A stretch of DNA of 64,000 bases, taken from the NCBI GenBank assembly GCA_017463365.1, contig JAFTPH010000028.1:268-64267 (forward strand). Reading direction: 5' to 3'. The position numbers and the translations under genes were made by a program. The notes below the pieces were generated by a model. That model saw only the letters and a program-made list of their open reading frames with translations, did no database searches and was not told the origin of the DNA. This DNA comes from Bacilli bacterium. Its GTDB lineage: Bacteria > Bacillota_I > Bacilli_A > ML615J-28 > CAG-313. This document shows, in pieces, positions 80 to 54,869 of the stretch (its first letter is position 1; each line of letters starts with the position of its first letter).

Positions 80-541
80 ATGGCATATTTAAAGGCGAAA
101 GAACATTTAGAAAAATATAATTTAGAGAATCGAATTATTGAATTTCCTATTTCTACTGCTACTGTTAAAGAAGCAGCAAATGCTTTAGAGGTAAGTGATG
201 GGGAAATTGCGAAAAGCATGGCCTTTGTGGTAAAAGAAGAATATATCTTAGTTTTAGCTGCAGGAGATAAAAAAATCAATAATGCTCTTTTTAAACAAGA
301 GTTTGGCACAAAAGCTAAAATGATTCCCTTTGATTTATTAGAAGAAGTAATAGGTCATGCGGGAGGAGGAGTATGTCCTTTTGGAATAAAAGAAGGGGTA
401 AAAGTATATTTAGATGAATCACTAAAAGTGTATGATATTGTATATCCTGCTTGTGGAACTGCTAATACGGCAGTAAAACTAAGTATTGAAGAATTAGAAA
501 AAGCTTCTAATTATTTAAAATGGGTAAATATTTGTAATTAA
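80..541 (+). CDS. ybaK: YbaK/ProX-family aminoacyl-tRNA editing deacylase (Cys-tRNA(Pro) deacylase-like)
   Basis: 153 aa; HAGGGVCPFG motif and YbaK/ProX editing-domain pattern; GAGGT RBS upstream of ATG at 80. Confidence 0.7.
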   Translation: MAYLKAKEHLEKYNLENRIIEFPISTATVKEAANALEVSDGEIAKSMAFVVKEEYILVLAAGDKKINNALFKQEFGTKAKMIPFDLLEEVIGHAGGGVCPFGIKEGVKVYLDESLKVYDIVYPACGTANTAVKLSIEELEKASNYLKWVNICN

Positions 542-569
542 TTGTAAGAATTATTCTTACAATTTTTTT
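381..569 (+). repeat. Left copy of duplicated ybaK 3' end + terminator (473-569 identical to 2392-2488; 381-418 about 90% identical to 2324-2360)
   Basis: direct comparison of the two sequence stretches in the window. Confidence 0.85.
543..569 (+). terminator. Rho-independent terminator of ybaK (ttgtaagaat/attcttacaa palindrome + T7)
   Basis: perfect 9-10 bp inverted repeat followed by TTTTTTT. Confidence 0.7.
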
Positions 570-805
570 CTTAAATCAATGAAAAAACTTTAGACATTTA
601 GTTGAATTAATTTCTAATGATTTGTTTTTATTAAATAGAACACTAAAAAGAAGTATTATTAAAAATTGATTCTAAGAAAACGAAAAGTTGCAAAGTTATT
701 GATTGATATTTTTGAGAATATGTTTTTTATTATCTCATGCGTCTGAATAATGAATAGGTATCATAGAAGTCAGGATTTGAAAGTTTAAAATTTATAATAT
801 AATAT

Positions 806-880
806 TCTTGAAATAAATTAAAATTTATTGTATACTTTATTGTATACTTTTTTAGAAAAAATGGTATACTATAAGTATAC
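806..880 (+). promoter_or_regulatory. Promoter region with four GTATAC palindromic boxes (830-835, 842-847, 864-869, 875-880) arranged as a tandem TTTATTGTATACTTT direct repeat plus a GTATAC-N5-GTATAC pair; TTGAAA (808-813) -17- TATACT (831-836)
   Basis: seen directly; located immediately upstream of the GGAGGG RBS (884-889) and ATG 898. Confidence 0.5.
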
Positions 881-897
881 TAATGGAGGGTTTGAAA

Positions 898-2288
898 TGA
901 ATAAAATAATTGATATATTTGAAAATCTTATGACATTTAAGGATGAATACGAATGGTTAGATTTTAAAGAAAATTGGTTTTCTAAGGATGAAATAGGAGA
1001 ATACATATCAGCTCTTTCTAATGGTGCAGCACTATGCGGGAAAGAATTTGGATATATTGTTTGGGGAATCAAAGATAATACCAAGGAAATTTCAGGTACA
1101 ACAATTAATTTTGATAAAGATATAGATGGAGAACCGTATAAACATTATTTAGCCAGAAAACTAAAACCAAGTATTGCTTTTGAGGTTCAAGAGTTTGAGT
1201 ATAATAAAAAGAGAATTGTAATGTTAGTTATACCTGCAGCTAAATCAGTAAAAACAAAATTTGATGGTGTTGATTATATAAGAATTGGTTCAAGTAAGGA
1301 AAAACTAAATAAATTTCCTGAGTATGAGATAAGACTAAATAATATATTAGTGAATGGTTTCCCTACAATTGTAAATATGCCAGCTCCTGATTATGCTCAA
1401 GAATTAACATTTCAAAAACTTTTTGTTTATTATGCATCAAAGGGGATTATTTTAAGGGATGAATCTTTTGAAAAAACCTTAAAATTGAAAACAAAAAATG
1501 ACTTATATAATATTATGGCATATATATTATCGGATCAAAATAATGTTCCAATGAGAGTATCAGTGTTTAGTGGAGTCGATAAAGCATCACCTCTTTATTC
1601 AGTAAAGGAATTTGGTAATACCTGTATATTTTACACAATAGATAAAATATTAGAATATGGTGATACAATTAATATTATTCAAGCAGATGAGAGAAATAGA
1701 ATTACATCAAGAAAAGATATTCCTTTATTTGATTTTGATGTATATCGTGAAGCAATATTAAATGCATTCATTCATAACAAATGGTTAACACTTAATGCAC
1801 CAGCTATTACGATTTATACAGATAGGATTGAAATATTATCTCATGGTGGATTAGCAATAGACCAAGATATAGAAGGATTTTATAGTGGTTCAAGTTTGCC
1901 TGTCAATGAAATTCTTGCAACTTTGTTTTTACAATTAAGAATTTCTGAACGCTCAGGCAGAGGTGTTCCTAAAATAATATCTGTTTATGGAAAAGAATCA
2001 ATTAAAATAGAAAAGAATAGAATAACAATAACTATTCCTTTTAATAAAATTGATGTAAATGAATTTCATATAGTATCTAATAAAGTATCTCCTAAAGTAA
2101 CCAATAAAACTGAAGATTTAATCCTAGAGTTAATTAGGGATAATCCAAATATTACAATAGCACAACTTATGATTAAAACTAGTTTATCTGAACCAGGAAT
2201 AAAGAAAAATCTAAAGAAACTAAAAGATAAAAATTTAATTCGAAGAGTTGGCGCAAACAAAGATGGTTATTGGGAAATAATAGAATAG
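898..2288 (+). CDS. AlbA_2 (Schlafen-like, formerly 'divergent AAA/AAA_4') + HATPase_c_4 + C-terminal winged-HTH protein (family often mis-annotated as RecG C-terminal-like putative transcriptional regulator)
   Basis: N-terminal ...LDFKENWFSKDEIGEYISALSNGAALCGKEFGYIVWGIKD... AlbA_2 pattern; C-terminal REAILNAFIHNKW...DRIEILSHGGL...ERSGRGVPKI HATPase_c_4 pattern; terminal wHTH. Start moved from track 828 to ATG 898 (RBS GGAGGG 8 nt upstream; the 828 extension runs through the operator repeats). Confidence 0.6.
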
Positions 2289-2323
2289 TTTGGCCTGACT
2301 ACCGAAATGCATATTAATTTTTG

Positions 2324-2488
2324 TTGGATAAAAGAAGGTGTAAAAGTATATTTAGATAAACAAGCCAAAGTTATTGAAGAAGAAATAGATAGTAAAACTA
2401 AGTATTGAAGAATTAGAAAAAGCTTCTAATTATTTAAAATGGGTAAATATTTGTAATTAATTGTAAGAATTATTCTTACAATTTTTTT
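2324..2488 (+). repeat. Right, partly degenerate copy of ybaK 3' end + terminator (remnant reading ..IKEGVKVYLDKQAKVIEEEIDSKTKY*)
   Basis: 97-bp exact match 2392-2488 to 473-569 incl. terminator hairpin 2462-2488; 2361-2391 diverged. Confidence 0.85.
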
Positions 2489-2562: not shown

Positions 2563-4851
2563 ATGCGCAAGATGTTGGTTTTAACATCGCTTTTTTTGGC
2601 TTTATTTGCTATTGTTAAATTTGGTAGCGAAATGAGTGTTTCCGCAAATGGAAATGAAAACAATTATGGAGATGTAAATGAAGACGGGGTAGCTAACACA
2701 AGTGATGTAATTTATATGTTATATCACGTAATGTTTGGTAAAGATGGTTATCCGTTATATCAAGGAAATAAAACTGAAATTAATGGATTAACAGTTGGTG
2801 ACTTTAATGGTGACAAAACAGTTAATACTAAAGATGTTACTCATTTACTTTATAATGTAATGTTTGGTGATAGTAGTTATCCACTATATGTTGAAAGTAG
2901 TGAAGATAATGTTGCGCCAGAAATTATCCTTGATGGAGTAACCCAAAATGTTAATTTAAATTGGAATACCACTTTTGATCCACTTAAAGGGGTAAAAGCG
3001 ATCGATAATGTAGATGGTGATATAACAAGTGACATTGTAGTTACTCATAATATTGATAATAAAACATATGGAACATATGATGTAAAATATACAGTATCTG
3101 ATAAAGCTGGTAATAAAACGGAGTATGTTCGAAAGGTAACAGTTATGTGGAATTATGGAGTAGAATTTATTGGTCATGCGGGAAGCTATTATGGACTTAT
3201 GAATTCCGAAGAAGCAATTCTTTACGCAATCAAGAATTTAAAATATCAAGCCGTCGAAGTAGATTTAAAACAAACTAAGGATGGGGTATTTGTATTATGT
3301 CATGATGATACTTTTGCGGGATACACAATAGCTTCAACTAATTGGAGTGAATTAAAAGATGTAACTCGTACTGCCCCAAGAAGTGGAGGAATTCCTTCTC
3401 AAAATGGTTCAGTTACAAAAGATTCATATACAACTGGTTTATGTACATTAGAACGATTCTTAGAAATTTGTCGTGATAATAATGTAAAAGCGGTCATTGA
3501 ATTAAAATATTCTAATGGAATAAATAATAATGATCAATCACGTATGCAAGCTTTAATGAATATGATTGAAAATTATAATATGCGTGAAAATACTATTTTA
3601 CTTGCATCGCAATATAAATGTTTAATTTGGACAAGAGAAAATGGTTATGATGATATTGAATGTCAATATTTAGTAAATTCATGTGAAAGTGAAACAACAT
3701 TAAATAGATGTAAAGAATATAATTTTACAGTAAGTATCAATACAACTGGTAATTATTCAAATAGTGATGAATGGTTAGCTAAATACCAAGAAGCAGGTTT
3801 AAAAATCTCTACATACACATATACTCAATGGGTTGATTATAACGTTGTTCAATCATGGATTGATAAAGGGGTAGATTATGTAACTTGTGATTGGCACTTA
3901 ATGGATCAATTAGAATTACCTGTAAATTCTGGTGATGAGGTTAAAACTTATACGGTAACGTTTAAAGACCATGATGGAACAGTTTTAAAAACAGCCACTG
4001 TTAAAGAAGGACGTACTGCGGCAGCCCCTAGTGATCCACAAAGATTAGGTTATGAGTTTGCTGGTTGGGATAAGAGTATTAATAATGTAAGAGAAGACTA
4101 TGAAGTATATGCAACATACAACTTAGTTACTTATACAATTACTTATGTAAATACTTTAAATACTTTAGTTGAAAGTGAATGGGCATCAAAAGATGCATTT
4201 GCACAAGAATTCTATAGTGATTTCTTTAATTGGTTAGTAAGCAAAGCAGGAGTTCTTCCAGATATAACAAAAACAGGAGATACATATAAAATTGTTAAAA
4301 ATGGGGTAACTGTTACATTTACAAATGTAAGTGATATTTTAGGTAGTGATATATATGTTTTTGAAAAAACATTCTCTAATTATATTTATAAACCAGTTAC
4401 AAGAACAAGTGATGGAACATGTGTTATTGAAGCATCTGAAGATTATTTCTTAAATAGTGATGCTTACCGCGATAAATACAAAGAAGTAGACACAATGTTA
4501 TATAGATGTATTAAAAATCGCTATACAGGATATGATGCAACATATACACCAACATCAGCTGGAAAAATCCAAATCTTCTTTAGATTCCATCAATGGATAA
4601 AAGGAACAACAATTAATGAATTCTTACCACTTCCAAAAAAATATACTTCAACTGGAAGTAATACAGATATCGTTTTACCAACAAATCCAATTACTTATAC
4701 AATCTTAGATGAAATAGTTTTACCAAATCCAACCTCATCTTTAGAATTCTTAGGTTGGTATAGCAATGCTGATTTCACTGGTTCAAAAATCGAAAAGATT
4801 GAAAACGGAACAACTGGTAATATTGTTTTATACGGAAAATGGAATGAATAA
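2563..4851 (+). CDS. Secreted multidomain glycerophosphodiester phosphodiesterase: signal peptide, dockerin-like double Ca-loop module, DUF5011/Ig-like domain, GDPD domain, two Listeria-Bacteroides (Flg_new) repeats
   Basis: 762 aa; N-terminal hydrophobic leader; DVNEDGVANTSD and DFNGDKTVNTKD loops; HAGSYYGLMNSEEA...DLKQTKDGVFVLCHDDTF GDPD motifs; LGYEFAGWD and LEFLGWYSNADFTG Flg_new motifs; RBS GGAGG 8 nt upstream. Confidence 0.7.
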   Translation: MRKMLVLTSLFLALFAIVKFGSEMSVSANGNENNYGDVNEDGVANTSDVIYMLYHVMFGKDGYPLYQGNKTEINGLTVGDFNGDKTVNTKDVTHLLYNVMFGDSSYPLYVESSEDNVAPEIILDGVTQNVNLNWNTTFDPLKGVKAIDNVDGDITSDIVVTHNIDNKTYGTYDVKYTVSDKAGNKTEYVRKVTVMWNYGVEFIGHAGSYYGLMNSEEAILYAIKNLKYQAVEVDLKQTKDGVFVLCHDDTFAGYTIASTNWSELKDVTRTAPRSGGIPSQNGSVTKDSYTTGLCTLERFLEICRDNNVKAVIELKYSNGINNNDQSRMQALMNMIENYNMRENTILLASQYKCLIWTRENGYDDIECQYLVNSCESETTLNRCKEYNFTVSINTTGNYSNSDEWLAKYQEAGLKISTYTYTQWVDYNVVQSWIDKGVDYVTCDWHLMDQLELPVNSGDEVKTYTVTFKDHDGTVLKTATVKEGRTAAAPSDPQRLGYEFAGWDKSINNVREDYEVYATYNLVTYTITYVNTLNTLVESEWASKDAFAQEFYSDFFNWLVSKAGVLPDITKTGDTYKIVKNGVTVTFTNVSDILGSDIYVFEKTFSNYIYKPVTRTSDGTCVIEASEDYFLNSDAYRDKYKEVDTMLYRCIKNRYTGYDATYTPTSAGKIQIFFRFHQWIKGTTINEFLPLPKKYTSTGSNTDIVLPTNPITYTILDEIVLPNPTSSLEFLGWYSNADFTGSKIEKIENGTTGNIVLYGKWNE
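2671..2889 (+). other. Dockerin-like module (two DxNxDGxxNxxD loops each followed by a YMLYHVMFG-type helix and YPLY)
   Basis: residues 37-109 of the 762-aa protein. Confidence 0.6.
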
Positions 4852-4958: not shown

Positions 4959-6314
4959 ATGAAAATAGTAGTAATTGGAGATGGAAAAGTAGGACGAGCA
5001 ATCGTTGAACATACATGTCAAGAAGGACATGAAGTAGTAGTAATTGATAACAAGGCTGATGTAATTGAAGAACTTGTAAACCAATATGACGTAATGGGGA
5101 TTTGTGGTAATGGAGCAAGTTATGAAATTCAAAGTAATGCGGGAGTAGATAAAGCTGATTTAGTTGTTGCTGCGACATCTAGTGATGAAACTAACGTTTT
5201 ATCATGTATGATTGCTAAAAAATTAGGAGCAAAATCAACAGTTGCGAGAATCCGTAGTTATGAATATAATAATCAAATTAATATGATGAAACGTGACTTT
5301 GGGATTACAATGACTATTAATCCAGAAAAAGAAGCATCATTAGAAATTATGAAAATTCTAAACTTCCCAGAAGCTATTAGAGTTGATACTTTCGCGAAAG
5401 GAAATGTAGACTTAGTTGAATTATATATTCCTGAAAACAGTCCCCTTATTGGTCAATCCCTTGCTTCAATTCATCAAAAATATCAAGTTAGGGTTTTAGT
5501 ATGTGCTGTACAAAGAAATGAAGAAGTCTTTATTCCAACTGGGAATTTTACTTTCCAAGCTAAAGACAAAGTACATATTACAGCAAGTCGCTCAACTGTA
5601 AAACAATTCTTAAATAAACTCGGTTTAATTGAATCAAAAATAAAGAATGTGTTAATTATTGGGGGAGGTAAAATTGCTGTATACTTAGGGGAACAATTAT
5701 TAAAGAGTAAATATCAAGTAAAAATTATTGAAAAGAATTATGAACGTTGTGTAGAATTAAGTCAAATTCTACCAAATGCCACTATTATTCATGGTGATGC
5801 ATCTGATCAAAGAGTACTTGATGAAGAAGGTTTAACAAATAGTGATGCAGTAGTTTGTTTAACTGGAATAGATGAAGAAAACATTATTATCTCAATGTAT
5901 GCTTATAAACAAAATGTTCATAAGATTGTTACTAAAATTAATAAAACATCATTAATTGGGTTAATTGATTCAATTAATATGGTAAGTACAATTGCTCCTA
6001 AAGAAATTACCGCTTCACGAATTGTTAGTTATATTCGTGCTACTAATAACTCTCGTGGAAGTAATGTTATCACTTTATATAAACTTGTTAATAATAAAGT
6101 AGAAGCTTTAGAATTTAAAGCAAGTGAAAAATCAAAAGTTTTAAATATTGCGTTTAAAAATCTAAAAATTAAGAAGAACATCTTGATTGCGGGAATCATT
6201 CGTGAAGGTGAAGTTATTATTCCTAGTGGGGACGATATGATTCAAGCAGGAGATAATGTTATTGTTGTAACTACTAATTCTTATCTAGACGATTTAGATA
6301 ATATTAGGGAGTAG
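4959..6314 (+). CDS. trkA: Trk potassium uptake system NAD-binding subunit TrkA (two TrkA-N/TrkA-C units)
   Basis: MKIVVIGDGKVGRAIV Rossmann N-terminus, second Rossmann LIIGGGKIAVYLG; ATG 4959 preferred over track start 4923 (RBS AGAGGTGAG). Confidence 0.8.
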   Translation: MKIVVIGDGKVGRAIVEHTCQEGHEVVVIDNKADVIEELVNQYDVMGICGNGASYEIQSNAGVDKADLVVAATSSDETNVLSCMIAKKLGAKSTVARIRSYEYNNQINMMKRDFGITMTINPEKEASLEIMKILNFPEAIRVDTFAKGNVDLVELYIPENSPLIGQSLASIHQKYQVRVLVCAVQRNEEVFIPTGNFTFQAKDKVHITASRSTVKQFLNKLGLIESKIKNVLIIGGGKIAVYLGEQLLKSKYQVKIIEKNYERCVELSQILPNATIIHGDASDQRVLDEEGLTNSDAVVCLTGIDEENIIISMYAYKQNVHKIVTKINKTSLIGLIDSINMVSTIAPKEITASRIVSYIRATNNSRGSNVITLYKLVNNKVEALEFKASEKSKVLNIAFKNLKIKKNILIAGIIREGEVIIPSGDDMIQAGDNVIVVTTNSYLDDLDNIRE

Positions 6315-8885: not shown

Positions 8886-10160
8886 ATGATAAAAAGAGAT
8901 TATTATTTAAATCAAATTATAAAAAGAGAATGGGATGGAAACATTAAAGTAATTACTGGTATTAGAAGATGTGGTAAATCTGTTTTATTATTTGAATTAT
9001 TTAAAGATTATTTAACGTCTAAAGGAATAGAGACATCTCAAATTATCGAAATTAAATTAGATAAAATGGATTATATTAAATATCGTAATCCTTTTTATCT
9101 TTATAAACAAATTAATAAAATTATAACTTTAAAAAAATATGATAAATATTATTTATTTATAGATGAAATTCAAATGGCTATTAAGAAAAAAGATAGACAA
9201 AGTGGTGTTACAGCAACAATCTATGATATATTAAATGGATTTAGAGATAATAAACTGCTTGATGTTTATGTTACCGGAAGTAACTCTAAAATGTTATCAA
9301 CTGATATCGCAACAGAGTTTAGAGGTAGATCTAGTAGAATTAATGTTCATCCCCTCTCATTTAAAGAATACTTTGAATATATAGGCGGAGATGAACAAAA
9401 AGCACTTAATGAATATATGATATTAGGTGGTATGCCTGGATTAATACATGAACAAACTGAAGAAGATAAAAAAATGTATTTAAAAAACTTGTATGATGAA
9501 ATTTATATTAAAGACATTGTTGAAAGAAATAAAATAAAAAGAGAAGATATTTTAAATGATATTCTTAATTATTTAGCTTCTCAGATTTCATCACTTACAA
9601 ACATTACAAGAATTGCTAATGCCATATCGTCTTTTAAAAAAGAAAATATAACCCATGAAATGGTTGATAACTATGTAAAACATATTAAAAATTCTATGTT
9701 AATTAGTGAATCACAAAGATATGATATTAAAGGTAAATCATTTTTTAGCTATCCAAGTAAATTTTATTATGAAGATACAGGACTTAGAAACGCAAGATTA
9801 AATTATAGACAAATAGAACCTGGACATTTAATGGAAAATATTCTATATAATGAGTTAATTAGAAGAGGCTTCACAGTAGATGTAGGAGCGGTTCCTATTA
9901 GAGAAGCAAATAATGTAGAATATGTGGAAATTGATTTTATTGTAAATAAATTAGATACAAAAATTTATATTCAATCAGCTTTTCAAATGTTAGATGCTAA
10001 TAAAGTAAATCAAGAAACTAGACCCTTTATGCTAACTAATGATTTCTTTAAAAAAGTTATTATTAGAAATGATATAATAAATAGTTTTTATGATGAACAA
10101 GGTATTTATCATTGTAGATTAATAGATTTTCTATTAGATAAAGTAGATTTTTTAAATTAA
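8886..10160 (+). CDS. AAA_14 + DUF4143 family ATPase (function unknown)
   Basis: 424 aa; Walker A GIRRCGKSVLL, Walker B LFIDEIQ; architecture typical of AAA_14/DUF4143 singletons. Confidence 0.6.
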   Translation: MIKRDYYLNQIIKREWDGNIKVITGIRRCGKSVLLFELFKDYLTSKGIETSQIIEIKLDKMDYIKYRNPFYLYKQINKIITLKKYDKYYLFIDEIQMAIKKKDRQSGVTATIYDILNGFRDNKLLDVYVTGSNSKMLSTDIATEFRGRSSRINVHPLSFKEYFEYIGGDEQKALNEYMILGGMPGLIHEQTEEDKKMYLKNLYDEIYIKDIVERNKIKREDILNDILNYLASQISSLTNITRIANAISSFKKENITHEMVDNYVKHIKNSMLISESQRYDIKGKSFFSYPSKFYYEDTGLRNARLNYRQIEPGHLMENILYNELIRRGFTVDVGAVPIREANNVEYVEIDFIVNKLDTKIYIQSAFQMLDANKVNQETRPFMLTNDFFKKVIIRNDIINSFYDEQGIYHCRLIDFLLDKVDFLN

Positions 10161-10214: not shown

Positions 10215-11591
10215 ATGAGTAAATTTATCGGAAATAAAAAGTTTTATCGTTTATTATTGGCAATTTTAATACCAATAGTATTACAACAATTATTAACACA
10301 ATTTGTTAACTTATTAGATAATATTATGATTGGTATTGTTGGAAATAATGAAATGACAGGAGTTTCCATTGCCAACCAAATATTATTTGTATATAACCTA
10401 TGTGTGTTTGGATCGCTTTCAGGGGCATCGATATTTGCGACACAATATTATGGAGCTCGTAATAAAGAAGGTTATCAAGAGTCATTTAGATTTAAACTTA
10501 TGATGGGGCTTATTATTTTTGCTGTTTTTACAGTAATTATAATTATTTTTAAAGAACCATTATTAAACGCATTTATTAATACTAACGAAGGAGATTTTAC
10601 AAATCCAGATGTTGTTTTAGCAGAAGGTAAAAAATATTTAATGATAATGCTTGTGGGGAATTTATTCTTTGCTTTAAAAGAAATATATGCCACATCTCTA
10701 AGAGAAATGAGAGAAACCCTCTTTCCAATGATTTGTGGAATAATCGCTATTTTAGTAAATTTAGTTTTTAACTATTTATTAATTTATGGAAAATTTGGTT
10801 TCCCAGCATTAGGTGTATCTGGAGCTGCTCTCGCAACAGTACTTAGTAGAGTGGTAGAATTTTTAATTATTGTTATTTACGCAAGTGTTAAAAAACATAA
10901 ATTTGATTATTTGGTGGGTATTTTTAAAAGACCTATTCCAAAATTTTCATCAATTAAATTATTTTTACCTAAAACAGTTTTGCTCTTATCTAATGAGTTT
11001 TTCTGGTCACTAGGATTAACGGTTATTGTAAGTTGTTATTCATTAAGAGGACTAGATTCTATGGCCGCTTTAAATATCGCTAATACCGTTTGTAATTTAT
11101 TTATTACTTTAGGAACTGCTCTTGGTAATGCGACAGGAATTGTAATTGGTAATCTTCTTGGTGCAAATAAAACCTTAGAAGCCAAGGAAGCTAGTTATAA
11201 AATTCTCTTTTTCTCATTCTTTGTATCATTGATATTCACAGCTTCAATGATAGTATCATCATTTATTATTCCGAACATATATGATACTTCTGAGGGAATA
11301 AGAGAAGTTGCTAAAGAACTAATTATTATTGGGGCGTGTTTCTTACCAATTCAAGCATTTAATACATGTAGTTATTTTATATTAAGGGCTGGAGGTAAAG
11401 TATTATTAACTATTATTTTTGATAGTGCCTATGTTTGGTTAATAAGACTTCCGCTTGCTTTTGCTCTAGCTAGTTTTACGGGATTATCAATTGTTTGGTT
11501 ATATTTTTTAGTAAATCTAACTGACGTTGTAAAAGTGCTTGCGGGATATATTTTAGTAGATAAAGGAATTTGGTTAAAACAAATTGTTTAA
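10215..11591 (+). CDS. MATE-family multidrug/oligosaccharidyl-lipid efflux transporter
   Basis: 458 aa, about 12 predicted TM helices, MATE-type N-terminus LLAILIPIVLQQLLTQFVNLLDNIMIG. Confidence 0.7.
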   Translation: MSKFIGNKKFYRLLLAILIPIVLQQLLTQFVNLLDNIMIGIVGNNEMTGVSIANQILFVYNLCVFGSLSGASIFATQYYGARNKEGYQESFRFKLMMGLIIFAVFTVIIIIFKEPLLNAFINTNEGDFTNPDVVLAEGKKYLMIMLVGNLFFALKEIYATSLREMRETLFPMICGIIAILVNLVFNYLLIYGKFGFPALGVSGAALATVLSRVVEFLIIVIYASVKKHKFDYLVGIFKRPIPKFSSIKLFLPKTVLLLSNEFFWSLGLTVIVSCYSLRGLDSMAALNIANTVCNLFITLGTALGNATGIVIGNLLGANKTLEAKEASYKILFFSFFVSLIFTASMIVSSFIIPNIYDTSEGIREVAKELIIIGACFLPIQAFNTCSYFILRAGGKVLLTIIFDSAYVWLIRLPLAFALASFTGLSIVWLYFLVNLTDVVKVLAGYILVDKGIWLKQIV

Positions 11592-13859: not shown

Positions 13860-14207
13860 TTATAATTCATTTATCGAAATAATACCTGAAGTTTCAGGAA
13901 AAGAAGGATAATTTTTAGTAATAGAAAGTAAGCGACATGCAGATCCATCAGGATGATTTCTACCACTTTCCCAAGCTTCAACAGTTTTAACTGATACGCC
14001 CATGAATTTTGCAAATAAAACTTGAGTTAGTCCCGTACTTTTTCTAATTTCTTTAATATCATTAGCTGAAAAACGATCAAGTGGAAGAATGTTTAAAGTG
14101 CTTTTTTTAGCTTTAATATTTCCTTTTTCATATTCAATGGCTTGGGTTAAACCAAGTTTAATTTCATCATATATACTCATATGGTCCTCCTTTTTGAAAA
14201 TTATCAA
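13860..14207 (-). CDS. higA: HigA-like antitoxin, XRE-family HTH
   Basis: TGLTQVLFAKFMGVSVKTVEAWESGRNHPDG HTH; ATGA overlap with upstream toxin gene. Confidence 0.7.
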   Translation of the reverse strand: MIIFKKEDHMSIYDEIKLGLTQAIEYEKGNIKAKKSTLNILPLDRFSANDIKEIRKSTGLTQVLFAKFMGVSVKTVEAWESGRNHPDGSACRLLSITKNYPSFPETSGIISINEL

Positions 14208-17045: not shown

Positions 17046-18581
17046 ATGGAAAATTATGCAATCGAAATGTTAAATATCACCAAAAACTTTTCTGGTAATC
17101 TTGCGAATGACAATATTACTTTACAAGTTAAAAAAGGTGAAATCCACGCTTTACTTGGTGAAAATGGAGCTGGTAAATCAACTTTAATGAGTATATTATT
17201 CGGGTTATATCGCGCTGATAATGGGGTAATTAAAAAAGATGGAGAAATCATCGATGTTAAGGATCCTAAAGATGCAACACGTTTTAAAATCGGAATGGTT
17301 CATCAGCACTTTAAATTAATCGAAAACTTCTCAGTTATTGATAATATTATTTTAGGAGCTGAAACTACTAAGTACGGTTTTATTCTAAAGAAAGAATCAA
17401 AAGAAAAAGTAAAAGCTTTATCAGAACAATATGGTCTACATGTTGACTTAGATGCGATTGTGGAAAATATTACCGTTGGTATGCAACAAAGAGTAGAAAT
17501 ATTAAAAATGTTATATCGAGAAAATGACATTTTAATTTTTGATGAACCAACTGCGGTACTTACTCCTCAAGAAATTGAAGAATTATTAAAGATTATGAAA
17601 AATCTTGCTAATAGCGGAAAATCAATTATCTTTATTACTCACAAAATCAACGAAATTTTAAGTGTAGCAGATCGTTGTAGTGTTCTACGTAAAGGTAAAT
17701 ATATTGGGACAGTTAATATAAGCGAAACATCAAAAGAAGAATTATCTGAAATGATGGTTGGACGTAAAGTTAACTTTGTTACAGAAAAGAAAGAATCAAG
17801 TCCAACTGATGTAGTACTAGAGGTGGAAAACTTATGTGTATCATCAGGAAGAAAAGGTAAAAATAGTGTAAATGATGTTTCTTTTAAAGTACGAAGAGGA
17901 GAAATCGTTTGTATTGCTGGTATTGATGGAAATGGTCAAAGTGAGTTAGTTTATAGTTTAACAGGACTTAAGAAAATTAATTCTGGTAATGTGTTATTAA
18001 ACGGTGTTGATTTAAAACGTTTAAGCATTGATAAACGTAACAAACTTGGAATAGCTCATATTCCAGAAGACCGTCATAAACATGGTTTAGTATTAGACTT
18101 CTCATTAGGAGATAATTTAGTATTAAAGAGATTTAGAGAAAATCAATTCCAAAAATTTGGATTTATTAAAAAAGAAGAAGTTAAAGTTTATTCTGATCAA
18201 TTAATTGAAAAATTTGATGTTCGTAGTGGAGAAGGAGCATTTAGTATTGTTCGTTCAATGTCTGGAGGAAATCAACAAAAAGCAATTATTGCCAGAGAAT
18301 TAGACTTAAACTATGAATTATTAATTGCTGTTCAACCAACAAGAGGATTAGACGTTGGAGCAATTGAATACATTCATAAACAAATTGTTGAACAAAGGGA
18401 TGCTGGAAAAGCAGTATTACTAGTATCACTTGAATTAGATGAAGTAATGAATTTAAGTGATAGAATTCTAGTAATGTATGAAGGGGAAATTGTTGGAGAA
18501 TTTAATCCTAAAGAAACAACTGTCAATGAATTAGGTTTATATATGGCAGGATCTAAAAAACAAACAAAGGAGATGAAGTAG
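17046..18581 (+). CDS. ABC transporter ATP-binding protein with two fused NBDs (sugar/nucleoside type)
   Basis: Walker A GENGAGKST and GIDGNGQSEL; signature LSGGNQQK; 511 aa. Confidence 0.85.
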   Translation: MENYAIEMLNITKNFSGNLANDNITLQVKKGEIHALLGENGAGKSTLMSILFGLYRADNGVIKKDGEIIDVKDPKDATRFKIGMVHQHFKLIENFSVIDNIILGAETTKYGFILKKESKEKVKALSEQYGLHVDLDAIVENITVGMQQRVEILKMLYRENDILIFDEPTAVLTPQEIEELLKIMKNLANSGKSIIFITHKINEILSVADRCSVLRKGKYIGTVNISETSKEELSEMMVGRKVNFVTEKKESSPTDVVLEVENLCVSSGRKGKNSVNDVSFKVRRGEIVCIAGIDGNGQSELVYSLTGLKKINSGNVLLNGVDLKRLSIDKRNKLGIAHIPEDRHKHGLVLDFSLGDNLVLKRFRENQFQKFGFIKKEEVKVYSDQLIEKFDVRSGEGAFSIVRSMSGGNQQKAIIARELDLNYELLIAVQPTRGLDVGAIEYIHKQIVEQRDAGKAVLLVSLELDEVMNLSDRILVMYEGEIVGEFNPKETTVNELGLYMAGSKKQTKEMK

Positions 18582-43282: not shown

Positions 43283-46200
43283 ATGAAGTTGTTAAAAAGA
43301 ATTTTTATTATATTAATGATATTAACAAGTATCTTATTAATTAAACCAATTAGTAAGGTAGAAGCGGAAAGTGAATCTACGGGAAGTGTTGGTTTACAAT
43401 ATACGCTTAATTCAGGTGGTGCATCATATGCTGTAACAGGTATAGGTACTTGTACTGATACAAACGTTGTTATCCCAAATGAATATAATGGGTTACCGGT
43501 TACTAGTATAGAAGCAAATGCTTTTAAACATTGTAAAGATATTATAACTGTGGAAATTCCTGAGAATATAGTTGAGATTGGTGACGATGCATTTTATAGT
43601 TGTCTAAAATTGAAAGATTTAATTATTGAAGGTAATAATAATTCAATGACTATTGGTAGTTATGCATTTTATTATTGTCGCGTTTTAAATAATGTTTACT
43701 TTAAAGGAACAGTAGAAGAATGGTGTAAAATTTCTTTCAAAGACAGTTATTCAAATCCGATGAATTATACTAGTAACTTTTATATGTTAAATGAAAAAGG
43801 AGAATATAAAAAAGTTACTAAATTAGAAATTCCTAGTACTGTTACAAGTATAGGAAACTATCAATTTGCTGGTTTATATGATTTAAGGGAAGTTATTATT
43901 CCGAATACTGTAACAAGTATAGGAGATAGTGCATTTGCTGGTTGTTATAGTTTAACAAGTATTGAAATTCCTGAAAGTATAACTAAAATTAGTGATTATG
44001 CATTTTCGAGTTGTTATATTTATAATTTGGTAAACAATAGTAATTTAGGAATTAGCATAGGTTCTAGTAATTATGGAAACATTGCACATTATACGATTAA
44101 ACTAACAAATAAAGATGGTAGTGTTAAACAAAAAAATGGGGTTATGGAATATATCGAAAAAGATGGTTTTGTATTTATCAAAGAAAAAGAAGTTTATAAA
44201 TTGATAAATTATGTAGGATCTGAAGAAACAGTAACTTTGCCACTTGATATAAACGGTAATAAATATACAATATTTCAAATGAGAGGTGTTAAAAACTTAA
44301 TAATACCTGAAGGATTTACGGAAATTAATGATTATGCGTTTTATGATTGTTCAACTTTAGAAAGTGTCAAAATTCCGACAAGTGTTACTAGAATTGGCAA
44401 TTATGCTTTTAATGGATGTAAAAATTTAACAGAATTATTTATACCAAATAGCGTTGAAAATCTTGGTTCATCTGCTTTTAGTTATTGTAATAACTTAAAT
44501 AAGGTGATATTTGAAGAAAACAGCAAAATCACTTATTTTTCAGATAGACTTTTTGAAGGGAGTAAAAATTTAATTGAAATATCAATTCCTAAAGGAGTTA
44601 CTGATATTTATGGTTTATACTCTTATTGTTTTTCTACTTGTTTCGGATTAGAATCTATTGAAATACCTAGTAGTGTAAAATATATAGGAGGTCAGGCGTT
44701 TAACTATTGTGTGAGTTTAACAAATGTATATTATCAAGGGACAATTGAAGATTGGTGTAATATCTATTTTGATTCAGGAATGTTCTCAACTCCAATGCAA
44801 TGGGCAACTCATTTTTACATGTTAGATGAAAATAATGATTATTATGAAGTTACAGAAATTTTTATTCCTGATACTATAAATAGAATAAAAAACTGTCAAT
44901 TTTATGGATTTACTAATTTAGAAAAAATATATATCCCAAAAAGTGTTACATATATAGGAGATGATGCGTTATATTTTGGTTCTAATTCAACAATATATTG
45001 TGAATCTAGTTCTAAACCAAGTGAATGGAGTACCAATTGGAATCGAAGAAATTATCCTGTTGTTTGGAATAGTTGCATGCATAGATCTTGTGAGTGGATT
45101 GTTGAGAGTGAACAATCTTGTACTGAAGCAGGTTATAAGTATAAAAAATGTTCTATATGTAATTTAATTGTAGAAGAAAATAATGCTCCCGCATTAGGCC
45201 ATAATTACAATGAAAATAATAAATGTACTAATTGTGGTGATGTTAAGATAAGCGAAGGTTTGGAATATAGATATGACAAAGAAACCAATACTTATTCTGT
45301 AAAAGGTATTGGAACATGTACTGATTCAGTAATTGTTATACCAAGTGTTTATAATGAATTACCAGTAACTGAAATTTTTGAATGTGCTTTTATGAATATG
45401 ACTAACATTAAAAAGGTTATTCTTCCAGAAACAATTACGCATATAAGTTTATGGGCTTTTGATAATTGTCAAGGTTTGGAAAGTATTGTTCTTCCTAAGA
45501 GCCTTGAAAATATATCTGATAGTGCTTTTAGAGATTGTTTAAATTTAAAAAATGTTTATTATAATGGAACAATTGAAGACTGGTGTAATATTGTCCTAGA
45601 AGATACTCCTATGAATAATGGGGAATTCTTCTATATGTTAAATGAAGAAGGAGAGTACTACGAAGTAACAGAAATAGTTATTCCAGATGGTATTACGAGT
45701 ATTGGACTTAATCAATTCTATTCATTTGATAATATTACGAAAGTAACAATTCCTAATGGGGTTACAGACATAAAAATAAATGCTTTTGCTAAGTGTAAAA
45801 ATTTAATTAGTGTTAATGTGCCAAATAGTGTTACATATCTTGGTGATTACGCATTCTCCGAATGTACAAGTTTAAAAAATATTGATCTACCTAATAGTAT
45901 AAAATCTATGGGCGCAAATGTTTTCTCTTTATCTACAAGTTTAGAACAAATTGAAATACCAACAGGCCTTGAAAAAATAACGATGGGAACTTTTGCTGGA
46001 TGCACAAGTTTGACTAGTGTCGTAATACCTGATAATATCTATAAAATTGGTACTGCTGCATTCTCAGGATGTACAGGACTTACTAATGTGGAAATCTCTG
46101 GCAAAACAGAAGAAATTGAAGATTCAGTTTTCCTTCAATGTACAAGTTTAGCAAAAATTGTTATCCCATTTAGTGTTAGAATTATCGGCAGATATGCTTT

Positions 46201-47875
46201 TTCTGAATGTGAAAATTTAACAATTTATTGTGAAGCCAAATCTAAACTAGTTGGATGGGATGAAAAATGGAATGCATCTAATTGTCCGGTTGTTTGGAGT
46301 TATTGTTTACATAACTTAAGTGATTGGACAATTGATTTAGAACCGACATGCGCATTAGTTGGTCACAAATATAAGACATGTACGAAATGTAATAATGTTG
46401 TCGAAGAAGCAGAAATTGAAAAGGTTGATCATAATTTTGATGAATTAAATAAATGTGAGGTTTGTGGGGATTATAAAGAACATGTTGGGTTAAATTATAC
46501 TATCAATGCATCATCTGATGGGTATATTTTAACTAGTCTTGGAACATGTACTGATACTGTAATTAATATTCCAAGTATGTATAATGGTTTACCAGTTGTC
46601 GAAATCGGTAATAATGCCTTTGAATATAGTTCAGTCACTCTAATTAATATTCCAAATAGTGTTGTTAAGATTGGCGATTATGTCTTCCATGCAAGTAAAA
46701 ATCTTGAACAAGTATTAGTTGATACTGAAAATGAATATTATGTTAGTGTTGATGGTATCTTATTTGATAAAGCAATTACAGAATTAATTGTTTATCCAGC
46801 TAAGAAAACAGGTAGTGAATATAATATTCCAAATACGGTAACTAATATTAAAGATTCCGCTTTTGCTTATAATGGACAATTAACTAAAATTACTATTCCT
46901 GAAAGTGTAAAGACGATTACTGATTATGCATTCTATAGATGTATATTATTAATTGAAATTATTATTCCAAATAGTGTTGAATCAATTGGTTCAAATGCAT
47001 TTGGTGAATGTCAAAATTTAGAAAAAATTACTTTTAAAGAAAACTCTAAAATAACAGAGATAGCTGATTGGTCTTTCTATAATTGTAAAAAATTAACAAG
47101 TTTTGAAATTCCAGAAAATGTTACTAAAATTGGAGTAAATGCGTTTGGAAATTGTAGCAGTTTAATCGAAATTATAATTGTAATAAAAATTACAATCATT
47201 AAGAATAATGCATTCTCAAACTGTAAAAATCTTAAAATTTTATGTGAAGCAGAAATGCAACCGAGTGGTTTCGAAAGTAACTGGAATAAGAGTGGTTGTG
47301 AAACAGTTTGGGGTTATTGTGAGCATATAATAAGTGATTGGATTATTGATAAAAAAGCAACATGTAAGGAACAAGGACATAAATATCAAGAATGTACAAA
47401 ATGTCATGATGTATTAAATGAAGAAAAAATTTCGATTTTAGATCATACTTATGATCAATATGTTGTAGCTGATAAATATTTAGCTAGTAAAGCTGATTGT
47501 TTAAATAAAGCTAAGTATTACTTTAGTTGTGTATGTGGTGAAAAGGGAACTACAACATTTAATTACGGTGAACTTGGAGAGCATAACTATGTTGATAGAA
47601 AATGTACAGTATGTAATATCGACGAATATACATTAGGTGATGTAGACAATAATGGAAATATCAGTACAAGTGATGTAACATATTTACTATATCATTTAAT
47701 GTTTGGTGAGGCAATGTATCCTGTAAATCAACCAGTTGATTACAATAATGATGGATTAACAAATACAAATGATGTAATCTATTTGTTATATCATATAATG
47801 TTTGGAGAAACACAATATCCATTATATCTTCCTAAAACTAATTCATTTGAAATAAAAGATGAGGAAGAAGAATAA
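43283..47875 (+). CDS. Giant secreted BspA-type LRR protein built of three super-repeats, each ending in a Cys-rich knot, with C-terminal dockerin-like module
   Basis: signal peptide ...KPISKVEA/ESE; three modules starting GLQYTLNSGG (43390), GLEYRYDKET (45254), GLNYTINASS (46486) each with GTCTD; Cys-rich blocks about 45060-45250, 46285-46480, 47305-47600. Confidence 0.75.
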   Translation: MKLLKRIFIILMILTSILLIKPISKVEAESESTGSVGLQYTLNSGGASYAVTGIGTCTDTNVVIPNEYNGLPVTSIEANAFKHCKDIITVEIPENIVEIGDDAFYSCLKLKDLIIEGNNNSMTIGSYAFYYCRVLNNVYFKGTVEEWCKISFKDSYSNPMNYTSNFYMLNEKGEYKKVTKLEIPSTVTSIGNYQFAGLYDLREVIIPNTVTSIGDSAFAGCYSLTSIEIPESITKISDYAFSSCYIYNLVNNSNLGISIGSSNYGNIAHYTIKLTNKDGSVKQKNGVMEYIEKDGFVFIKEKEVYKLINYVGSEETVTLPLDINGNKYTIFQMRGVKNLIIPEGFTEINDYAFYDCSTLESVKIPTSVTRIGNYAFNGCKNLTELFIPNSVENLGSSAFSYCNNLNKVIFEENSKITYFSDRLFEGSKNLIEISIPKGVTDIYGLYSYCFSTCFGLESIEIPSSVKYIGGQAFNYCVSLTNVYYQGTIEDWCNIYFDSGMFSTPMQWATHFYMLDENNDYYEVTEIFIPDTINRIKNCQFYGFTNLEKIYIPKSVTYIGDDALYFGSNSTIYCESSSKPSEWSTNWNRRNYPVVWNSCMHRSCEWIVESEQSCTEAGYKYKKCSICNLIVEENNAPALGHNYNENNKCTNCGDVKISEGLEYRYDKETNTYSVKGIGTCTDSVIVIPSVYNELPVTEIFECAFMNMTNIKKVILPETITHISLWAFDNCQGLESIVLPKSLENISDSAFRDCLNLKNVYYNGTIEDWCNIVLEDTPMNNGEFFYMLNEEGEYYEVTEIVIPDGITSIGLNQFYSFDNITKVTIPNGVTDIKINAFAKCKNLISVNVPNSVTYLGDYAFSECTSLKNIDLPNSIKSMGANVFSLSTSLEQIEIPTGLEKITMGTFAGCTSLTSVVIPDNIYKIGTAAFSGCTGLTNVEISGKTEEIEDSVFLQCTSLAKIVIPFSVRIIGRYAFSECENLTIYCEAKSKLVGWDEKWNASNCPVVWSYCLHNLSDWTIDLEPTCALVGHKYKTCTKCNNVVEEAEIEKVDHNFDELNKCEVCGDYKEHVGLNYTINASSDGYILTSLGTCTDTVINIPSMYNGLPVVEIGNNAFEYSSVTLINIPNSVVKIGDYVFHASKNLEQVLVDTENEYYVSVDGILFDKAITELIVYPAKKTGSEYNIPNTVTNIKDSAFAYNGQLTKITIPESVKTITDYAFYRCILLIEIIIPNSVESIGSNAFGECQNLEKITFKENSKITEIADWSFYNCKKLTSFEIPENVTKIGVNAFGNCSSLIEIIIVIKITIIKNNAFSNCKNLKILCEAEMQPSGFESNWNKSGCETVWGYCEHIISDWIIDKKATCKEQGHKYQECTKCHDVLNEEKISILDHTYDQYVVADKYLASKADCLNKAKYYFSCVCGEKGTTTFNYGELGEHNYVDRKCTVCNIDEYTLGDVDNNGNISTSDVTYLLYHLMFGEAMYPVNQPVDYNNDGLTNTNDVIYLLYHIMFGETQYPLYLPKTNSFEIKDEEEE
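47633..47872 (+). other. C-terminal dockerin-like module of the 1530-aa protein (DVDNNGNISTSD...YLLYHLMFG..YPV / DYNNDGLTNTND...YLLYHIMFG..YPLY)
   Basis: two EF-hand-like 12-residue loops with D/N at 1,3,5,9,12 each followed by helix. Confidence 0.6.
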
Positions 47876-48156: not shown

Positions 48157-51100
48157 ATGAAAAAAGTATTAAAAGTTTTTATTTGTATGTTTATGATATC
48201 TTTAGGATTTTTAATTTCAGAGGTCATTTTAAAAGTAAATGCTGAAACAGTTGATATCAAAGGAGTGGAGTATACCTTTGAGTTAAGTGAGGATGGTACT
48301 TATTATATTATGACAGATGTTGATATTGATTCATCTTTAGGTTCAATAACAATTCCATCTAAGTATAATGGTCTTCCAATTAAGGAAATAAAAGGAGATG
48401 CTAAATTTTCTAATTGGAATATAAAAAGCTATTATTTTGAAGGAACATTTACCGATTGGTGTAATATTTCCTTTGAAAATGCAGGTAATAATCCATGTTT
48501 TCATTCTGGTGATATCTATATGTTAAACAAAACAGGGGATTATGAGTTATTAACCGAAATAAATATACCTGATGGTACCACAAAGATTAGTAAATATCAA
48601 TTTTGTGGTTTTTATGATAATTTAAATAAAATTATCCTTCCTAAAAGTTTAAAAAGTATAGGGGAGTCGGCTTTTAATGGGTTAGGTAAATGTGATGTTT
48701 ACTATCAAGGAACAATTGAAGATTGGTTAAAAATTGATTTTTCTAATGCATCAGCTAATCCATTATATTCATCTGGTTATAGATTATATGTTAAAAATAG
48801 TTTAAATGAATATCATATTGTGACAGATATTACAATACCAAGTGATATAACAGAGGTGTCAGTTGTTAATTTTATTGGTCTAAATGATGTAGTAAATTTA
48901 ACAATTCCCAAAAGTGTTGTAAAATTTGAAAAAAATTTTGGTTATGAACTTGATGAGTTAAAAAATGTTTATTATGAGGGAACAATTGAAGATTGGTGTA
49001 ATATTACTTTTGAAGATAATAGTAATCCTATGGGTTATGGAGATAACTTTTATTTAAAAACAGGTTCTTATTATTATAAACCAACCGATTTAGTTATTCC
49101 AAATACAGTTAAAATAATTAATCAATATCAATTTTATGGTTTTTCACAAATAGAAAAGATAACTATTTCTAGTGGTGTAACCGAAATAAAGCAATATGCG
49201 TTTACTAATTGTACAAAAGTAAAAGAAATAAGTCTTCCAAATACTTTAACAATGGTTGGGAGAAGTGCATTTTATGATTGTGATAATTTATCTATGTTAG
49301 TATTCCCTGAAGGGGTAAAAACAATTGATAGTAATGCTTTTGGAAATTGTACAAAATTAAAAACCGTTTATTTACCAAGTACTCTTGAAAAAATTGATAA
49401 CTCTTATGTTCCAGCCACAACGCTATATTATAATGGAACAGTTGACAAATGGTTAGAAGTAGATGATCGAATAACTGGTAGTTATGTAAAAGAGTTATAT
49501 TGTTTAGATAGTAAAGGGGTTTATCAATCAACTAGTAATTTAGTAATTCCGGAGGGAGTAACTTCAATTAAAGCTAGCGCATTTGATTATTGTCAATGGA
49601 TTAAAACTGTTACTCTTCCAAGTAGCTTAGTTTCAATTGATAAAAATGCTTTCTATGAGTCTTCATTTATTACAGATGTATATTATGAAGGAACAATTGA
49701 TGATTGGTTTAATTTAACAATTGATGTTGGTGGTAATCCTGTAGAATGGGCCGACAATATCCATTTTAAAGATGAAAATGGAGAATATCAAAAAGTAGTT
49801 AATCTAGTAATTCCTGAGGGAATAACAGAAATAAAAGGTCCAGGAGTATCATATTTTTATAATTTAAAAAGTATTACATTGCCGAAGAGTTTGAAAAAAA
49901 TTGATGGAAAGGTGTTTTTATACTGTAGTAATTTAGAAACAGTATATTATAATGGAACAATTGAAGATTGGTGCGCCATCGAATTAGGAATAACACCAAT
50001 GGGTTTTGCCGAAGAGTTTTATTTTCTTAATAATGGTACATATGAAAAAGTAACTGAAATTGAAATACCGGAATCGGTAAAAAATATTGGTAAATATCAA
50101 TTTTATGGTTTTTATGATGTTAAATGTGTTACAATTTCAAGTAATGTAGAAAGTATTGGTGAAAAAGCCTTTGCTTATATGACGGATCTTGTAAAAGTGG
50201 TATTCAAAAAAAATAATAATTCCGTTAAGATTGATTCTTATGCTTTTGCTTCTCAAAATTTAATTGATGTTTATTATGATGGTACAATAGAAGATTGGTG
50301 TAAAATAGAATTTGATGATTATTATTCAAATCCGCTATATTATGCTAAGTATTTTTTTATGAAAGATCAAATGAATGAATATTATGAAGTAACAGAATTG
50401 GAAATTCCAAAAACAGTAACGAATATTGGTGATTATCAATTCTATGGATTTGATTACTTAAAGAAAGTCACTATTCCAAGTGGAATAACAAGTATTGATG
50501 ATGGTGCTTTCTGTAATAGTGGAAATTTAAGAGAAATTATTTTTGAAGATGTAAATTCCTTGGAATATTTAAGTGAAAGTGCTTTTTATAATTGTAATAA
50601 ATTGGAAAATGTTTATATTAATAAATATAGTGAAAAATGGGCATCTTTAATTGGCTTTACTTATTTAAATAGTTCAACAATAAATGTTTATTTTAAAAAC
50701 GATCAAGGAGAATACATAACTAAAAATGAAATTATTATTCCTAACGGAGTAGAAGAGATTAAAGAAAGAGAATTTGCTAATGCGGAAAAATTAGAAAAAA
50801 TTGTAATTTCAAATAGTGTTAAGAAGATTTCAAAAGGAGCCTTCTATAATAATATTTCTTTGAAAGATGTTTATTATAATGGCACAATAGAAGAATGGTG
50901 TAATATTACATTTGAAGATTACATGGCTAATCCAATGTCTTATGCTGAACACTTTTATATGTTAAATGATAATAATGAATATTATGAAGTAACAGAAATA
51001 GTAATCCCAGATACGATAACTTCTATAAAAGAATGCATATTCTTTGGATTTAATAATGTAACAAAAGTTGTAATTCCAAACAATATTACTAGCATTGAAA

Positions 51101-54864: not shown

Positions 54865-54869
54865 AATGT

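Follow-up and report, generated by a model that had tools for sequence, protein, structure and literature searches.

A one-gene genomic islet behind ybaK in a Bacilli bacterium, bracketed by a duplicated end of its target gene

We analyzed a 64,000-nt stretch of contig JAFTPH010000028.1 (positions 268 to 64,267 of the forward strand) from the Bacilli bacterium assembly GCA_017463365.1, hereafter the window, in which a foreign insert lies directly behind ybaK, a housekeeping gene near the left end. The insert is bracketed by a duplicate of the ybaK end, holds a single intact gene (hereafter the cargo) and has no recombinase within its bracket. The locus looks like a stripped-down genomic islet of a known type and not like a new mobility system. 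It offers a clean minimal example of the gain of a single defence-type gene by gut Bacilli of reduced genome, with the target gene left undisrupted.

The bracket is formed by a 98-nt direct repeat whose two copies, at 472–569 and 2391–2488, are 100% identical. None of 100 dinucleotide-preserving shuffles gave even one match of this kind, and the pair is the sole long, high-identity repeat within the window, where the other repeat families are protein-repeat modules of 60–87% identity. Identity ends sharply on both sides of this core, and its right end falls exactly after the T-run of the ybaK terminator. Upstream of the core, similarity resumes over ∼35 nt (381–416 versus 2323–2357) with one mismatch and one single-base indel, and a wider alignment of the same outer part (379–418 versus 2321–2360) holds two mismatches and two single-base gaps. 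The whole shared segment comes to ∼190 nt if the internal patch, in which 33 nt of the right copy stand in place of 55 nt of ybaK, is counted. If that patch is set aside, the two copies share ∼99% identity (one mismatch and one indel in ∼133 nt), which points to a duplicate of this lineage's own ybaK end rather than a segment imported from another species. The 33-nt patch itself resembles neither ybaK nor the rest of the window to a significant degree; copying from elsewhere in ybaK was considered as its source and rejected, as 55 of 2,000 shuffles scored equally well. The initial annotation of this DNA had described a 97-nt core (starting at 473 and 2392), a resumption of similarity upstream of it, and a right copy with a diverged gene end. 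The repeat and the upstream resumption hold, with the core extended to 98 nt (starting at 472 and 2391), while the supposed divergence comes down to the one 33/55-nt patch. That annotation had also proposed a search for the core beyond the locus, which turned up no other copy in the window and none in viral contigs.

The two copies differ in what they do for the gene. The ybaK gene on the left is intact, because its product aligns end to end with 26 homologues; its score against TIGR00011 falls under the cut-off. Folding of the hairpin behind the gene (540–564, with the T-run extending to 569) gave a ΔG of −9.2 kcal/mol and a z-score of −2.1; a generic terminator scan missed this hairpin because its stem has just two G-C pairs. 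On the right, all that is left of the gene is a 33-codon remnant that lacks the invariant YPACG segment and has no Pfam match, in agreement with the initial description of an intact left and a decayed right ybaK. An intact gene on the left with a remnant on the right is the topology of a single crossover. For annotation, the short open reading frame (ORF) at 2307–2408 calls for caution, as it is a piece of ybaK.

Independent k=31 assembly of public sequencing runs (Logan contigs) bears on whether this arrangement is real. Contig L001, seen in three samples with SRR12529332 and SRR12529365 among the runs, spans exactly 540–2420, and in two runs the contigs that cover the downstream gene start at a point exactly 30 nt inside the core end; therefore, both inner junctions exist in the reads of several samples. 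A minor caveat is that a k=31 graph cannot separate the integrated state from an empty site accompanied by a 1.9-kb circle. One could accordingly imagine a chromosome that really reads ybaK, core and GDPD gene, with the 1,919-bp unit (core plus 570–2390) as a separate circle or part of another strain, and with a contig path through the repeat that was wrongly resolved or is true for part of the population. We consider such an assembly artifact very improbable. The blindness of the graph to a circle plus empty site, and the breaks of the Logan contigs exactly at the repeat borders, speak for it, but the contig of the metagenome-assembled genome crosses both copies, the 98-nt repeat is shorter than ordinary 150-nt reads, and the same breakpoints recur in two to three runs. 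Moreover, a 1.9-kb circle without a replication gene would be a transient excision product at most, and would itself confirm mobility.

Between the repeats lie 1,821 nt (570–2390) with one intact gene. This cargo gene is the sole ORF of at least 72 aa in the interval, all shorter ORFs lying within it, so the single-gene cargo of the initial annotation stands, with its start moved from 898 to 897. The product matches three Pfam domains in the order AlbA_2, HATPase_c_4 and winged helix-turn-helix (HTH), with E-values of 1.1e-19, 5.2e-12 and 4.1e-07 and scores of 71.5, 46.0 and 29.9 bits, all above the respective gathering cut-offs of 25.3, 26 and 21.9 bits. Neither the ORF list nor the Pfam search revealed a recombinase or transposase domain inside the bracket, as the initial annotation had stated for integrases and recombinases, and ten further ORFs checked elsewhere in the window included no recombinase. 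The left arm of the insert (570–775) has no ORF of at least 30 aa and no significant match to the flanks of the cargo's relatives or to the rest of the window, the spacer behind the cargo (2289–2322) has no significant similarity to the DNA downstream of the cargo in those relatives, and no Rfam family or structured RNA was found in the arms. Against a relative at locus L007, the cargo gene shows 122 synonymous-only versus 30 amino-acid-changing codon differences and is therefore under purifying selection. The hairpin of the right repeat copy lies ∼170 nt downstream of the cargo gene and, judging from this position, may serve as its terminator.

By sequence comparison the cargo appears clearly foreign and horizontally acquired, because its family statistics differ from those of its neighbors, its DNA homology to relatives is limited to the stretch from promoter to stop codon, and it is absent from related ybaK loci. 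At 90% identity the cargo falls into a cluster of 42 members, versus one member each for the flanking YbaK and GDPD proteins; its closest relative is 93% identical, whereas the best YbaK match among 5.8 billion proteins reaches 72%. Relatives at 87–93% identity occupy unrelated genomic contexts, and DNA homology to them runs from the promoter (∼776) to the stop codon. For the comparison of ybaK loci we used 82 related loci, 80 of them from one-per-species genomes (53–67% identity to YbaK, without synteny) and two from the nearest metagenomic relatives. A cargo homologue, a second ybaK fragment or a GDPD gene downstream of ybaK was present in 0 of these 82, and the nearest YbaK relatives (71–72% identity) have other genes downstream. 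A scan of the metagenome collection with a degenerate ybaK-tail pattern gave no matches, and a look-up of the exact YbaK protein found nothing on record, likely because the Logan contigs break inside ybaK.

This evidence also bears on the alternative that the cargo is ancestral and that the repeat arose when the ybaK end was simply duplicated in place, without any horizontal transfer. Base composition would allow it, as the GC profile gives no signal of foreignness (∼27% in the cargo region versus roughly 26–33% in the flanking genes), and no conspecific genome without the cargo was found, one genome of the source species being on record and 64 kb of it having been seen. It is nevertheless hard to credit for a gene that shares 93% identity with proteins from unrelated contexts when the closest YbaK shares 72%, that is carried by none of the 82 related ybaK loci, and whose DNA homology to its relatives covers the stretch from promoter to stop codon and no more.

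Table 1. Features of the ybaK locus and its insert (positions in the window)
Feature	Position	Strand	Description
ybaK, intact target gene	80..541	+	Cys-tRNA(Pro) deacylase family; PF04073, E 5.5e-26
Left copy, outer near-identical part	381..416	+	codons FGIKEGVKVYLD; aligned to 2323-2357
ybaK segment without counterpart in right copy	417..471	+	55 nt, ESLKVYDIVYPACGTANT; holds the invariant YPACG motif
Left core copy (attL-like)	472..569	+	last 23 ybaK codons, stop codon, hairpin and T-run
ybaK terminator	540..569	+	11-bp perfect stem, 3-nt loop, T7 run
Left arm of insert	570..775	.	206 nt, AT-rich, non-coding
Cargo promoter / 5' region	776..896	+	∼120 nt; four GTATAC motifs; GGAGG at 885-889
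Cargo gene	897..2288	+	463 aa; AlbA_2 (Schlafen-type), HATPase_c_4, winged HTH
Spacer, cargo stop codon to ybaK-like remnant	2289..2322	.	34 nt
Remnant ORF, dead ybaK fragment	2307..2408	+	33 codons (MHINFCWIKEGVKVYLDKQAKVIEEEIDSKTKY*), without the invariant YPACG segment
Right copy, outer near-identical part	2323..2357	+	aligned to 381-416
Patch in right copy	2358..2390	+	33 nt in place of 55 nt of ybaK; shifts the frame
Right core copy (attR-like)	2391..2488	+	perfect match to 472-569; own hairpin at 2459-2483
Downstream host gene, right flank, outside the insert	2563..4851	+	secreted GDPD / Ig-like / Listeria-Bacteroides-repeat protein

The genomic neighborhoods of the cargo's relatives show where its gene pool is found. 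At locus L002 the relative sits in an island of defence and mobile genes with RelB, RhuM, resolvase and GmrSD genes, at L003 it lies between surface protein and hydrogenase genes, and at L004 to L010 it adjoins tRNA-Arg genes. The closest relatives form a discrete module of ∼2.3 kb (L004 7736–9990, L007 206–2460, L009 from 625 onward, and L010) made up, in order, of a 200-nt arm, the promoter, the cargo gene, a 154-aa ORF without family match and ∼130 nt more. This partner ORF is absent from the window, L002 and L003, and a search for a remnant of it or of the relatives' arms in 2289–2395 and 570–776 gave alignments no better than those of shuffled sequences. The left edge of the module is the exact 3' end of a tRNA-Arg gene, and two different isoacceptors are used. 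At L009 an intact tRNA-Arg(CCT) borders the module with its 3' end; at L007 and L008 a partial tRNA-Arg(CCT), its 3' half, precedes the module and is itself preceded by other foreign DNA; and at L004 and L005 the order is an intact tRNA-Arg(TCT), 1.4 kb of DNA without genes, a partial tRNA copy and the module. The right boundary (...GATATCGTAGCAGTTAG) is likewise discrete, with L004, L005 and L007 all diverging at the same point. Tandem, decayed arrangements without an integrase have been described as the outcome of decay and accretion (PMC5704250). The tRNA-Arg placements thus indicate that tandem, decayed islets without an integrase exist in the gene pool from which the cargo comes.

At L004 the partial tRNA copy in front of the module comprises 53 nt of the 3' half with two mismatches. 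The gene-less 1.4 kb (L004 6236–7735; also L005 from 1740 onward) holds internal 87-nt repeats. This is another integrated relic that has decayed and lacks an integrase, and it lies immediately upstream of the cargo module.

Our favored reading of the ybaK locus, held tentatively, is a relic resembling the cis-mobilizable elements (CIMEs), which arise by decay and have lost their integration and transfer genes while keeping attL and attR (PMC5704250); the islet at 570–2390 would have been inserted by one crossover in the ybaK end, and the integrase of a larger parent element would since have been lost. The incoming DNA, presumably circular, would have carried a copy of ∼190 nt of the same ybaK end. 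One reciprocal crossover would have joined the chromosomal ybaK end to the copy on the circle and placed the islet behind ybaK, an event that necessarily yields two copies of the shared segment. The left copy would then complete ybaK and keep its terminator, and the right copy would be stranded behind the cargo, later to lose 55 nt to a 33-nt scar. Most likely, the crossover was made by a site-specific integrase of the larger parent element that targeted the ybaK end or the terminator hairpin; this integrase may since have been deleted or may act from elsewhere. Left over would be attL- and attR-like repeats around one cargo gene, with no mobility genes, and today the islet could be lost only if its 98-nt repeats recombined, or be moved only if help came in trans. 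We favor a site-specific integrase because brackets of this kind commonly stem from elements that rebuild the 3' end of their target, because the gene pool of the cargo is found at tRNA integration sites, and because identity stops exactly where the unit of gene and terminator ends. A bracket of like design around another housekeeping gene, PFOR, at L143 and the occurrence of the cargo family in the Mycoplasma phage phiMFV1 also speak for this reading. The circle, the enzyme and the parent element are presumed.

Several results weigh against this CIME-like reading. Neither an integrase nor a remnant of one lies in or beside the bracket, nor does any relic gene of an integrative and conjugative element (ICE) or integrative and mobilizable element (IME), and both arms (570–775 and 2289–2322) are non-coding and have no relatives; viral contigs gave no match. 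The repeat, 98 nt of perfect identity plus 35 nt more, is long for an att core and is equally a RecA-type substrate. Among the 80 one-per-species loci, none has an integrase-bearing element at the ybaK end or a duplicated ybaK end; tyrosine recombinases account for 2 of 134 ORFs downstream of ybaK, and neither of the two loci has a ybaK-end duplication. No empty-site allele was found among the 82 related loci, no donor element turned up, and neither an empty site nor an excised circle could be demonstrated. Flanking direct repeats are, furthermore, no general trait of the cargo family, an idea rejected with exact direct repeats of at least 25 nt in 4 of 57 loci versus inverted ones in 3 of 57.

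The same survey speaks to ybaK itself as an integration site. A role for ybaK as a general att hot spot was rejected, given that no duplicated ybaK end occurs in the 80 loci and integrases are rare downstream; the single match, at L075, stems from a repeat that lies downstream of ybaK in intergenic DNA. Nor did the related ybaK loci show other cargo within the same bracket, so that the check on relatives proposed in the initial annotation, for empty-site alleles or different cargo, found neither. Because the 82 relatives provide no empty site, no alternative cargo and no integrase-bearing element at the ybaK end, we infer site-specific attL/attR integration rather than observe it. From that earlier proposal, the foreign insert and the intact left and broken right gene stand, and the integrase-bearing element at the ybaK end is what the relatives did not supply. 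The two options it had left, an island that is decayed or minimal and a cassette that moves through homology in its flanks, both still lead, and the data do not separate them.

The second of these options is a close rival, although we judge it the less likely one. According to it, homology alone suffices: a circle made by RecA through recombination of the two repeats in a conspecific donor, carrying the cargo and one ybaK end, would enter by transformation or transduction and reinsert by a single homologous crossover in the identical ybaK end of the recipient, with no site-specific recombinase needed after the first event. The length of the shared segment (98 nt perfect, ∼190 nt in all) and its ∼99% identity to the host outside the patch are as expected if the two copies stem from this one species, and the lack of a recombinase, together with the finding that ybaK is not a recurrent att site, points the same way. 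Two more distant relatives of the cargo add to this. Contig L143 (1–4922) has an intact C-terminal part of PFOR (TPP_enzyme_C) on the left, a two-gene insert in the middle and a frameshifted middle part of PFOR (Fer4) on the right, and its ends form a 307-nt direct repeat of 95% identity; the insert comprises a 370-aa ORF without family match and a 60%-identical cargo homologue. At L127, a 167-nt direct repeat of 92% identity (2943–3109 and 5232–5398) lies on either side of a cargo homologue of 62% identity and an ORF of 135 aa, with a GmrSD restriction gene upstream. This repeat consists of the promoter, 5' untranslated region and ribosome-binding site region of the downstream DUF1016 gene, and hence expression of the inserted gene seems to be driven by a duplicate of the host promoter. 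Host-sequence repeats such as these two are too long and too diverged for att cores. Homology alone, however, leaves the first linkage of the cargo to a ybaK fragment unexplained, and ∼100–190 nt is a poor substrate for RecA-mediated single crossovers. The end of the identity block exactly at the terminator end and the position of the relatives at tRNA 3' ends both fit site-specific events better, and there are no conspecific empty or alternative alleles, with the one genome on record, to show exchange. A guess that the 370-aa neighbor in L143 is SIR2-like was not confirmed, as it has no Pfam match.

The 33-nt patch, in turn, invites an explanation by illegitimate insertion, in which microhomology or template switching at a fork that had broken or stalled attached linear foreign DNA behind the ybaK terminator. 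In that case ∼190 nt of the target would have been copied twice, the patch would be a junction scar, there would be neither att sites nor a circle, and the islet would be immobile. We regard this as improbable. The patch does look untemplated, the duplicated segment is this genome's own sequence (∼99%), the arms are unique and without relatives, and no recombinase is present. But the patch lies inside the right copy and not at the junction of foreign and host DNA, and the left junction is clean after the terminator, with both gene and terminator preserved. Target duplications of ∼190 nt would also be unusual for illegitimate insertion in bacteria.

Known systems give the CIME-like reading its closest parallel. 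In Streptococcus thermophilus, CIMEs of the ICESt1/ICESt3 group reportedly occupy the 3' end of the protein-coding gene fda (Pavlovic et al. 2004). As in the ybaK islet, a housekeeping protein gene is used at its 3' end and left intact, direct repeats that contain the gene end form the brackets, and the cargo lies between them without integrase or transfer genes. The tandem, decayed arrays that relatives of the islet's cargo form at tRNA genes are also what accretion would give. In contrast to the CIMEs, the ybaK site has no known cognate element that bears an integrase, and the islet's repeats are much longer than the short att cores of the ICESt1/ICESt3 group.

Genomic islands and prophages at tRNA 3' ends share the topology of the islet, with the target whole on the left and duplicated in part on the right; a partial tRNA copy serves there as attR, and the closest relatives of the cargo are themselves found at tRNA-Arg CCT and TCT. 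The target of the islet is instead a protein gene with its terminator, and its insert is a 1.8-kb, one-gene segment without integrase. Neisseria minimal mobile elements are cassettes swapped between conserved flanking genes by transformation and homologous recombination. They resemble the islet as single-gene cassettes without mobility genes that could move via flank homology, but they have no duplicated gene end and are defined by alternative cassettes in conspecific strains. Transposons and insertion sequences differ more plainly, for the islet has no transposase domain, no terminal inverted repeats at 570/2390, and a duplication of 98–190 nt. The locus shows that att-like scars may be the sole survivors of such an element, and should excision or alternative cargo prove true, the ybaK end would be a defined site of accessory-gene exchange in an uncultured lineage.

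A broader reading would have genes of the AlbA_2/HATPase_c_4/winged HTH type mark a family of integrase-less cassettes of one or two genes that insert repeatedly at the 3' ends of conserved genes and move via integrases in trans, RecA-made circles or, least likely, the cargo protein itself. Its target sites would be tRNA-Arg CCT and TCT, ybaK and PFOR, with the target regenerated in each case. We see this as a long shot.

The analysis flags this AlbA_2/HATPase_c_4/HTH gene as recently acquired. Its product has the same three domains in the same order as COG2865-type proteins, among them a protein of the Mycoplasma prophage phiMFV1 that is 34% identical over 96% of the protein. Proteins of this type are annotated as "putative DNA-binding domain-containing", "ATP-binding" or "RecG-like helicase"; the architecture is widespread, with no member of demonstrated function, and a sequence search returned no solved structure for a relative of the cargo. 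The phage protein family phrog_12156 matches the cargo over its full length (E 3.5e-54), and against PADLOC the N-terminal 115 residues give a weak match to PDC-S50 (E 1.7e-05), accompanied by weak HTH matches. A statistical association with defence islands and defence systems has been described for AlbA_2 domains of bacteria, and cell killing by Avs9 requires the acidic site of its AlbA_2 domain (PMC12680541). A phage origin of the insert is unsupported: viral contigs contain no close relative of the cargo and no core sequence, and the phiMFV1 homologue is just 34% identical. Plasmid matches to the cargo reach 32% identity or less.

The region upstream of the cargo gene (776–896) is conserved in L002, L003, L004, L007 and L009, and a promoter scan placed candidate −35/−10 pairs at 808–836 and 853–881. 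Four GTATAC palindromes lie within 817–881, with TTGTATAC occurring twice in tandem at 829–848, followed by GGTATACTATAAGTATAC; they overlap the candidate promoters and are conserved in every relative examined. These palindromes could be the operator for the winged HTH domain of the cargo protein itself, and a role of the cargo in defence or regulation, with autoregulation via the GTATAC repeats, would be a reasonable suggestion from its domains.

Other repeats occur around relatives of the cargo. At L002, a 232-nt copy (92% identity) of an internal part of RhuM (3876–4106 versus 9319–9549) is located upstream of the cargo homologue, which is 90% identical. The RhuM gene itself lies intact 5 kb downstream, AAA_14/DUF4143 and HTH genes also lie between the two, and the resolvase and GmrSD genes are nearby. 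At L151, a 40–66-nt element of 86–92% identity occurs four times (4003–4084, 11500–11564, 13995–14034 and 17326–17365) around a 59%-identical homologue, and may be an intergenic repeat or an att-like site. At L119, a G+C-rich 116-nt repeat of 78% identity (1403–1516 and 3157–3272) directly flanks a 64%-identical homologue, and may be a structured RNA or an intergenic repeat element.

Outside the insert, the downstream GDPD protein shares a sequence motif with two giant proteins encoded farther along the window (43283–47875 and 48157–54864), which are made of BspA-type leucine-rich repeats and other repeat modules of 60–87% identity. The motif, a paired 64-nt unit that encodes ...DV.YLLYH.MFG...YP... 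and resembles a dockerin-type repeat, is found at 2703–2895, 47671–47833 and 54705–54867, that is, N-terminally in the GDPD protein and C-terminally in both giant proteins.

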